A DNA stretch of 16,938 nt from a virus (taxonomy: Duplodnaviria; Heunggongvirae; Uroviricota; Caudoviricetes), in IMG/VR virus record IMGVR_UViG_2728369593_000023, positions 1 through 16,938 of that record. The stretch is one strand, 5' to 3'. Positions 6,001-9,000 of this stretch are shown piece by piece. Position numbers: made by a program. How positions within the stretch are numbered: position 1 is the stretch's first letter; each line of letters opens with the position of its first letter.

Positions 6001-9000
6001 TTTTGTTTTTATTGGCCCGAAAAAACTGTAACGCCCGGGAATGATATCTGCCACGGGGGCGTACAGAAAATGTGAAGATATTCAGAATTTTTATTCAGTC
6101 ATGATACAGGCATCCTCCGGGATGCCTGTTGTTTTTGTGCGTAACAGTTATCACAGTAAAGGGTGAGACAATGGGCAAAGGTGGCGGCAAGGCGCACACG
6201 CCGGTAGAGGCAAAGGACAATCTTAAGTCCACGCAGATGATGAGCGTGATTGACGCCATTGGTGAAGGGCCGATTGAAGGTCCGGTGAAGGGGTTGCAGA
6301 GTATCCTGGTGAACAAAACCCCGCTGACGGACACGGACGGTAATCCTGTGATACATGGTGTGACCGCGGTCTGGCGCGCCGGGGAGCAGGAGCAGACACC
6401 ACCTGAAGGCTTTGAGTCCTCCGGGGCGGAAACCGCACTGGGCGTGGAAGTGACGAAGGCAAAGCCGGTGACGCGCACCATTACATCCGCGAACATTGAC
6501 CGCCTGCGGGTCACCTTCGGGGTGCAGTCACTGGTGCAGACCACGTCAAAGGGTGACCGAAACCCGACATCCGTCCGCCTGCTGATTCAGTTACAGCGTA
6601 ACGGTAACTGGGTGACGGAAAAGGATGTCACCATTAACGGCAAGACCACCTCGCAGTTTCTGGCGTCGGTGATTCTGGATAATCTGCCTGAGCGGCCCTT
6701 TAACATCCGGATGGTCCGGGAGACAGCGGACAGCACCTCGGACCAGCTGCAGAATAAGACGCTCTGGTCGTCATACACCGAAATCATCGATGTGAAACAG
6801 TGCTACCCGAACACGGCGATTGTGGGGCTGCAGGTGGATGCGGAGCAGTTTGGCGGTCAGCAGATGACGGTGAACTACCATATCCGCGGTCGCATCATCC
6901 AGGTACCGTCAAACTATGACCCGGAAAAACGCACTTACAGCGGCATCTGGGACGGCAGCCTGAAACCGGCATACAGCAACAACCCGGCCTGGTGCCTGTG
7001 GGACATGCTGACTCACCCGCGCTACGGCATGGGAAAACGTCTGGTGGCGGCGGATGTTGACAAGTGGGCGCTGTATGCCATCGGGCAGTACTGCGACCAG
7101 ACGGTCCCGGATGGTTTCGGGGGCACAGAGCCGCGGATGACCTTTAATGCGTACCTGGCACAACAGCGTAAGGCGTGGGACGTTCTCAGTGATTTCTGCT
7201 CTGCGATGCGCTGTATGCCGGTATGGAACGGTCAGACGCTGACGTTCGTTCAGGACCGCCCGTCGGATGTGGTGTGGCCGTACACCAACAGCGATGTGGT
7301 GGTGGATGATAACGGCGTGGGATTCCGCTACAGCTTCAGTGCCCTGAAGGACCGGCACACGGCGGTGGAGGTGAATTACACCGACCCGCAGAACGGCTGG
7401 CAGACCTCCACGGAACTGGTGGAAGACCCGGAAGCCATACTGCGCTACGGACGCAACCTGCTGAAGATGGACGCGTTCGGCTGCACCAGCCGCGGTCAGG
7501 CCCACCGTGCCGGACTGTGGGTGATAAAGACCGAACTGCTGGAAACGCAGACGGTGGATTTCACGCTCGGGTCACAGGGGCTGCGGCACACACCCGGTGA
7601 CATCATTGAAATCTGTGATAACGACTATGCCGGGACCATGACCGGCGGACGTATCCTGTCCATCGATGCCGCCACCCGCACCCTGACACTGGACCGTGAA
7701 GTGACACCTGCCGGAGACAGGTGCCCGCCACGGTGAACCTGATTAACGGCAGCGGTAAGCCGGTGAGCGTGGCCATCACTGCACACCCCGCGCCGGACCG
7801 GATACAGGTCAGCACCCTGCCTGATGGTGTGGAGACATACGGTGTATGGGGACTCTCCCTGCCGTCACTGCGCCGTCGCCTGTTCCGCTGTGTCTCCGTC
7901 CGGGAAAACACGGACGGCACCTTTGCCATCACGGCGGTGCAGCACGTACCGGAAAAAGAAGCCATCGTGGATAACGGTGCCCGCTTTGAGCCGCAGTCAG
8001 GTTCCCTGAACAGCGTCATCCCACCGGCAGTGCAGCACCTGACGGTGGAGGTGAGCGCAGCTGACGGCCAGTATCTGGCGCAGGCGAAATGGGACACGCC
8101 GCGGGTGGTGAAGGGTGTGCGCTTCAGTCTGCGCCTGACCAGTGGTAAGGGAACGGATGCCAGACTGGTGACCACCGCCATCACCGCAGACACGGAGCAC
8201 CGTTTCAGCGGCCTGCCGCTCGGGGAATACACCCTGACGGTGCGGGCGATAAACAGCTATGGCCAGCAGGGTGAACCTGCCACCACCACCTTCCGGATTG
8301 CCGCACCGGCAGCACCGTCGCGGATTGAGCTGACGCCGGGCTATTTTCAGATAACCGCCACGCCGCATCTTGCCGTTTATGACCCGACGGTACAGTTTGA
8401 GTTCTGGTTTTCGGAGACAAAAATCGCAGACACATCTCAGGTGGAAACCTCTGCCCGTTATCTGGGGACCGGCAGTCAGTGGAGTGTATCCGGCCCGCAC
8501 ATTAAGCCCGGGAAGGATTTCTGGTTTTACGTGCGCAGCGTCAACCTGGTGGGGAAATCTGCTTTTGTGGAAGCCAGTGGCCGGGCCAGCAATGATGCAG
8601 AAGGGTATCTGGGGCTGTTTCGGGAAAAAATAGGAAAACTGCATCTGGCTCAGGGGCTGTGGGAGCTGATAGACAACAGCCAGCTTGCGGATGAGATGGC
8701 GGAGATGAAGACCTCCATCACCGAAACCCGCAATGAAATCACACAGACGGTCAGTAAAACGCTGGAGGACCAGAGCGCCACCATACAGCAGATACAGCGC
8801 GTGCAGAAGGACACAAATGATGACCTTGCTGCACTTTACATGCTGAAGGTACAGAAAACAAAAAATGGCATACCCTATGTTGCCGGTATTGGAGCGGGGA
8901 TTGAGGATACTGATGGCCAGCCCCTGAGCAACATACTGCTGCTGGCTGACCGTATTGCGATGATTAACCCGGAGGACGGCAACACCACGCCGTTATTTGT

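Follow-up and report, generated by a model that had tools for sequence, protein, structure and literature searches.

Two single-base insertions, probably consensus errors of a draft assembly, interrupt the host-specificity gene J of a lambda-like Escherichia coli prophage

In the DNA analyzed here, a stretch of 16,938 nt (hereafter, the window), the host-specificity gene J of a lambda-like prophage is, judged by comparison with its relatives, interrupted by two separate +1 insertions that lie 18 nt apart and are not the product of one event. The most likely source of both is a consensus error in the draft assembly of a multi-copy gene, an explanation that is favored over genuine mutation, itself a serious contender. 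The window comprises the first 16,938 bases of contig AKYH01000032.1 from the draft assembly GCA_001605745.1, and its content is a lambda-like prophage tail module with a type III effector locus after it. The genes are arranged in the order IS end, G remnant, T, H (870 aa), M, L, K, I, J, lom, stf, and tfa, with four NleG-family genes, espW, and a chaperone-like gene after tfa, and the effector genes located 3' of the tail genes are intact. By alignment, the best match of the whole window is strain F2_407_2_2 (98.6%), and both the gene calls and the annotation of the best-matching locus place J at its usual position in the tail module (H-M-L-K-I-J-lom-stf-tfa).

As had been predicted originally, the deposited J is split over two frames. 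One ORF runs from 6129 (or 6171) to 7736 and another, in a different frame, from 7721 to 9649, with gpJ Pfam domains being found on both; a gpJ gene is expected to be one continuous ORF of about 1130-1160 codons, but this one is present as a 521-aa and a 642-aa ORF. The elements of the break are the following:

6171..7706, plus strand: first segment of J, codons 1-512, ending in ...LTLDREVT (position modulo 3 = 0; three-frame translation)
7706..7708, plus strand: first extra base, GTGAC-CCTG (or GTGACAC-TG) in the relatives being GTGACACCTG in the window (alignments)
7708..7725, plus strand: second segment of J, CTG CCG GAG ACA GGT GCC, encoding the conserved LPETGA (position modulo 3 = 1)
7713..7723, plus strand: GGAG-ACAG-GTG, in which the GTG at 7721 is the gene callers' start of the 642-aa C-terminal ORF
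7724..7726, plus strand: second extra base, a C-run of CCC versus CC in the relatives (GGTGCCGCC becoming GGTGCCCGCC)
7727..9649, plus strand: third segment of J, from ATVNLING... through the natural stop (position modulo 3 = 2)
7734..7736, plus strand: premature TGA that closes frame 0 after nine out-of-frame codons (PAGDRCPPR, then stop)

Three-frame translation shows the J peptide LTLDREVT / LPETGA / ATVNLING to be spread over frames 0, +1, and +2. Homology in the first frame, which had been followed through to 7718, ends at 7706, so that its end had been misplaced by 12 nt, and PAGDRCPPR is out of frame. Similarly, the unexplained gap of about 8 nt that had been placed between the two coding segments does not exist, as the 18 nt at 7708-7725 encode the conserved LPETGA in a third frame. 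Positions 7640-7790 were aligned to the intact J of E. coli O111 110512 and O157 AC-5, and the alignments with 110512, AC-5, and F2_407_2_2 all show two separate single-base insertions. The first of these can be read in two ways, either as an A inserted at 7706 or as a duplication of the C at 7707/7708, while the second aligns the window's GGTGCCCGCC with GGTG-CCGCC in the relatives. The spacing between the flanking anchors is 56 nt in all 83 J loci that were sampled from IMG/VR and E. coli genomes, versus 58 nt in the window. Thus, the net change of +2 nt agrees with one of the two lesions first proposed (a 1-nt deletion or a 2-nt insertion), but it is made up of two single-base insertions 18 nt apart; likewise, alignment to the intact J of relatives does reveal the disruption of an otherwise intact gene, by two insertions rather than one.

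Deletion of A7706 and of one C of the run gives a 3477-nt ORF encoding 1158 aa. Of the repairs that had been envisaged, one additional or two fewer nucleotides, only the removal of these two specific bases brings back the conserved peptide, whereas the addition of one would reopen the frame but leave scrambled residues. This length is shared by 112 of the 120 best database matches and by the J of the best-matching locus, and 82 of the same 120 have exactly the junction peptide obtained by the repair, LPETGA being present in 82 of these 120 closest J proteins. According to precomputed Pfam matches, the 521-aa product contains FNIII-A_GpJ and Phage-tail_3, and the 642-aa product Ig_J, Ig_J_second, Phage_Tail_Tip, and Ig_GpJ_C, which together form the full gpJ domain set, as in intact relatives. 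In a phmmer search against PDB chains, the repaired J matched 8iyk_J with an E value of 0, residues 1-834 aligning to chain residues 1-836 and residues 863-1157 to chain residues 837-1131. The repaired J thus runs collinearly with lambda gpJ (PDB 8iyk/8k35; PF24801, PF13550, PF24421, PF24489, PF09327, and PF12421), with which it shares the Pfam domain set, as well as the gene order I-J-lom-stf-tfa. On sequence grounds, J is a standard gpJ homologue, predicted to serve as the tip attachment or host-specificity protein. While lambda gpJ is a single chain, the deposited J of the window is broken at the equivalent of lambda residues ~512-519 (DREITLPSSG).

Neither J insertion was found elsewhere. 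The complete E. coli genomes were searched by BLAST with 91-nt windows and, among 5,426 of them, 1,892 had matches; none of their 6,152 J places carries either insertion, and the best match (96.7%) has both gaps. An exact 48-mer with the double insertion is absent from the GTDB species representatives and from IMG/VR, a 29-mer with the double insertion is absent from the JGI metagenomes, and single-insertion J patterns are not present in IMG/VR. At the level of the whole gene, a two-frame J was not encountered among the relatives (the 83 loci, the best 120 proteins, and the 5,426 complete E. coli genomes), although finished genomes in which J is annotated as frameshifted do exist. For lookups of the truncated products, a gene index covering 153 billion gene positions was used; the 521-aa truncated J product is encoded on one contig only in this index, AKYH01000032.1, and the 642-aa C-terminal J product, as well as the 373-aa product of stf (see below), are likewise unique to it.

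The side tail-fiber gene stf is the second broken tail gene of this contig, and contains the third frame-breaking change of the window:

10406..11527, plus strand: truncated side tail-fiber gene stf, 373 aa versus 437 aa
11479..11484, plus strand: run of six G (G6), five (G5) in the relatives; third frame-breaking +1 of the window

In intact relatives, stf encodes 437 aa and ends 1 nt before tfa, and it is the insertion that turns G5 into G6 that truncates it to 373 aa in the window. The complete E. coli genomes yielded 5,805 matching places, of which none has G6, and the best match (98.9%) corresponds to one gap; the same run is G4 in one complete genome (L103). When the window is compared with its best relative, this insertion is the only net frame-changing difference besides the pair in J, the remaining indels being compensating pairs within divergent patches.

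The original prediction had set a real mutation against a sequencing error, and these are indeed the two alternatives that matter. Homopolymer and mixed-paralogue consensus errors occur in pyrosequencing-era and long-read draft assemblies of multi-copy prophage genes. Both J and stf are multi-copy, with a median per genome of 2-3 places for J and of 9 places for stf, and the several J paralogues of a genome are 93-98% identical. In an error of this kind, a single consensus would have been built from the reads or overlaps of different J copies, with short C/G runs overcalled, the change from G5 to G6 in stf would have had the same origin, and the true J of the strain would be a normal 1158-aa gene. 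Each of the three +1 events involves or adjoins a run of C or G (C to CC, or an A into CCC; CC to CCC; and G5 to G6), and each of them falls in a homopolymer run or at a site that differs between paralogues. All three are also private to this one assembly, as they are absent from all related sequences searched.

The first insertion falls exactly on an ACC/ACA (Thr) polymorphism that divides two J allele families. To its left the bases are of the B type (GAA...ACA) and to its right of the A type (CTGCCGGAGACAGG; CTG CCG GAG ACA GG), and at the point where the local haplotype switches the window carries the bases of both alleles in tandem, AC[A][C]CTG, as is expected of a mixed-paralogue consensus. 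An analogous explanation of the second insertion, as a tandem retention of bases from the TP and TS alleles (GGTACACCGACGG and GGTACATCGGCGG), needs a contrived alignment and is not relied on. The window thus resembles known draft-assembly consensus errors in its +1 changes by C/G runs, in the restriction of these changes to the contig's repeat-rich portion, and in having an insertion at a paralogue SNP with the bases of both alleles kept. In addition, by our own estimate, two of three indels would come to lie within 18 nt of each other with a chance of about 1-2% if they were independent over 5-12 kb.

A collection of 15 billion proteins has no exact copy of either the repaired J or the repaired stf product. 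The closest full-length J in that collection is 98% identical, and a query with 250 allele-specific residues of J returned cluster representatives only, at no more than 98% identity, a setting in which fragments from sister strains could not surface. By these comparisons, the J of the window is a mosaic allele that has no intact twin on record.

The sister assemblies, which include GCA_002461645.1, GCA_044785175.1, and GCA_044825865.1 and were found via an identical H protein, bear on both alternatives. Over window positions 280-5301 and 12882-16938, four independent sister assemblies have no indels and 0-3 SNPs each, which points to a lineage so young that one would not expect three real indels in it. 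The retrieved sister contigs end at or before 5301 or begin at 12882, and all three indels are within 5302-12881, the stretch that has no retrieved sister contig.

The alternative that competes most closely is that the two +1 insertions in J and the G6 of stf are real, having accumulated by neutral decay in a prophage that was inactivated by an ISEc13 insertion in G and is kept for its intact type III secretion system (T3SS) effector cargo, four NleG-family genes and EspW. We regard it as quite possible, if second to the consensus error. Its basis is an independently verified inactivating lesion in the same prophage, at the left end of the window:

1..356, plus strand: 3' end of ISEc13 (IS4 family, Tn5 type), with the terminal repeat ...AGATCTGATCAAGAGACAG, adjoining the truncated G
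357..551, plus strand: remnant of gene G, the tail-assembly chaperone, comprising its last ~60 codons (Phage_TAC_2, profile positions 82-123 of 126)
578-991: T, probably reached via the in-frame heptamer A AAA AAG at 527-533 in G

Positions 1-356 are 100% identical to annotated ISEc13 copies and encode the C-terminus of a Tn5-type transposase, which matches the Pfam family Dimer_Tnp_Tn5, and the G remnant was also aligned to the intact G of L003. The ISEc13/G junction at 356/357 is reproduced base for base in the independent assembly NKAF01000096, which is 100% identical over 3998 nt, and the insertion is considered real for this reason. Because ISEc13 cuts gene G, the tail module is defective whatever the state of J, and the prophage is defective independently of the J and stf frameshifts. 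With selection lifted from the tail genes by the IS in G, real frameshifts would be tolerable. They would also be in keeping with other genomes, given the finished ones in which J is annotated as frameshifted and the G4 variant of the same stf run. Moreover, the assembly is not generally poor, as the contig is error-free over the checkable 9 kb and the gene lengths are normal in the 10 kb of chromosomal flank (potBA, pepT, roxA, phoQP, purB, hflD, and mnmA), and the effector genes downstream are intact.

Frameshifts, deletions, and inserted IS elements are typical of the lambdoid prophages of enterohemorrhagic E. coli (EHEC) (Asadulghani et al. 2009, PMC2669165). Like these defective prophages (Sakai Sp; PMC2669165), the one in the window has T3SS effectors 3' of its tail-fiber genes, and an IS insertion together with frameshift-type lesions in its morphogenesis genes; in the window, however, only the IS insertion is independently verified, whereas the frameshifts are known from a single draft contig and may be absent from the strain itself. 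Against real mutation also stand the short time that is left for three indels by sisters with 0-3 SNPs and no indels over the comparable 9 kb, the improbability of two insertions 18 nt apart as independent neutral events, and the rarity, in vivo, of +1 slippage in runs of 1-2 bases. Finally, it speaks against real mutation that the first insertion is placed at a paralogue SNP where the haplotype switches. The anatomy of the break, its repair by the loss of two bases, and the private nature and the setting of the lesions are shown here, while the error origin is inferred from them; on balance, a consensus error in the draft assembly is the explanation that we favor.

A functional split of J, in which the 521-aa N-terminal product and a C-terminal one, restarted at GTG 7721 and overlapping the upstream stop by 16 nt, would both be made and assemble into a working tail tip, is very improbable. 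It draws on the GGAG-N4-GTG just upstream of the frame-0 stop and on the location of the break between the Phage-tail_3 and Ig_J Pfam regions. Yet the GGAG that precedes GTG 7721 by 4 nt appears to resemble a Shine-Dalgarno sequence only by chance, as the same bases encode the conserved P-E-T-G in intact genes; going by these alignments, the GTG and its GGAG are the coding sequence of intact genes and not a conserved start signal. Furthermore, no relative with a two-piece J was found, the 112 same-length matches and lambda gpJ being single chains, the two-piece arrangement is on one contig only, and the IS in G, together with the broken stf, already stands in the way of tail assembly. Even fainter is the prospect that the insertions are real and that J is made as residues 1-512 plus a short tail and, separately, as the C-terminal piece from GTG 7721, with the two assembling into the tip. 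Should it be true, it would represent a naturally split lambda central tail fiber protein, usable by co-resident prophages in a 'defective prophage pool'.

Programmed recoding, by which ribosomal frameshifting or two +1 hops would yield a full-length J, is effectively refuted. The two long ORFs would become one through a net -1 shift at any point of 7700-7733, but one such shift would still leave the conserved LPETGA replaced, and a two-frame J is not conserved in any of the relatives; nor is an X XXY YYZ heptamer present in any frame of 7690-7736 (the sole run of three or more being the CCC at 7724, which was created by the second insertion), and the RNA fold of 7700-7800 is unexceptional (-39.6 kcal/mol versus a shuffle mean of -35.3, z = -1.17, with 29 of 200 shuffles equaling it). 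The negative heptamer scan and fold and the single-ORF relatives uphold the earlier view that a slippery heptamer is lacking and programmed frameshifting unlikely. The real programmed site of this prophage is unlike the J break. As in lambda, where a programmed -1 frameshift leads from G to GT, the G of the window holds an in-frame A AAA AAG (527-533) leading into T, which is a plausible G/T slippery site as far as the sequence goes; the J break, in contrast, lacks both a slippery site and conservation, and only two shifts would give the conserved peptide. Another candidate for the G/T site, GGGAAAG at 495-501, was rejected because it lies out of register, at a point where the T frame is closed.

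The weight of the J break is set by a context that had been missed before, namely, the draft contig, the second broken tail gene stf, and the IS in G. Whether it is a draft error or a dead gene, a frame-broken J is ordinary, and nothing in it departs from known biology; in a lambdoid prophage of attaching-and-effacing E. coli it is routine and has small biological weight. In annotation, the 521-aa and 642-aa ORFs should not count as separate genes, and describing the lesion as two +1 insertions amounts to a precise prediction of the two bases that should vanish on resequencing. The defect of the prophage should be scored on the confirmed ISEc13 insertion in G and not on the J and stf frameshifts, and the intact effector cargo, four NleG-family genes and EspW, is the part of the locus that still matters to the host.

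Two finished genomes, O157:H7 AC-5 (NZ_CP169546.1) and O145 RM11626-C1 (NZ_CP035768.1), carry a J gene annotated as a "frameshifted" pseudogene, and both have normal in-frame sequence at the site where the window's J is broken (two +1 insertions at 7706-7708 and 7724-7726). Thus, J copies broken at positions other than that of the window are common. The other features of the tail module considered here are the following:

1-356: end of ISEc13 (IS4 family, Tn5-like), with the junction at 356/357; the contig begins within the element
357-551: remnant of the tail-assembly chaperone gene G
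578-991: tail-assembly chaperone gene T
4614-5357: tail-module gene K
10406-11527: truncated side tail-fibre gene stf, the remainder of which runs to 11720

In stf, the window has G6 at 11479-11484 where relatives have G5, which cuts the product to 373 aa versus 437, and this G6 is private to the window's contig. One complete genome (CP148535.1), in which no stf gene is called, has G4 at this run, which makes the run an indel hot spot, be it real or technical. K differs from that of a sister contig, taken from an independent assembly close to the window's strain, by one substitution, at 4696. Within the protein collection, a K protein identical to the window's was found on the window's contig only, with neither protein accession nor name; the lack of an accession is a hint that neither a deposited nor a RefSeq annotation exists for this assembly.

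Downstream of the tail genes, the window carries an intact type III secretion system effector cargo (12104-16938), directly followed by the chromosomal pot operon, pepT, phoQP and purB, and 100% identical in the Logan assembly of ERR180844:

12104-12679: first NleG/DUF1076 gene of four
12970-13551: second NleG/DUF1076 gene
13619-14254: third NleG/DUF1076 gene
14382-15440, minus strand: espW
15515-16165, minus strand: fourth NleG/DUF1076 gene
16348-16938: IpaB_EvcA-type chaperone-like gene

The first NleG gene is flanked by an imperfect direct repeat of ~175 nt (11888-12061 and 12764-12929), with copies roughly 85% identical as judged by cross-match to a relative with intact G (L003). Since the short-read sister contigs start at 12882, just after the second copy, this repeat is suggested to break assemblies.

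At the other end of the window, the heptamer A AAA AAG (527-533), a canonical -1 slippery sequence, lies in the G frame near the end of the G remnant, and the T frame is open downstream of it. This heptamer is likely the G-T chaperone frameshift site, kept despite the loss of the 5' part of G. Another candidate, GGGAAAG (495-501), was rejected, being out of register, with the T frame then hitting a stop. The terminal repeat of ISEc13, ...AGATCTGATCAAGAGACAG, adjoins the truncated G at 356/357. Because an identical junction is found in the independent assembly NKAF01000096, the insertion is real and the prophage defective.
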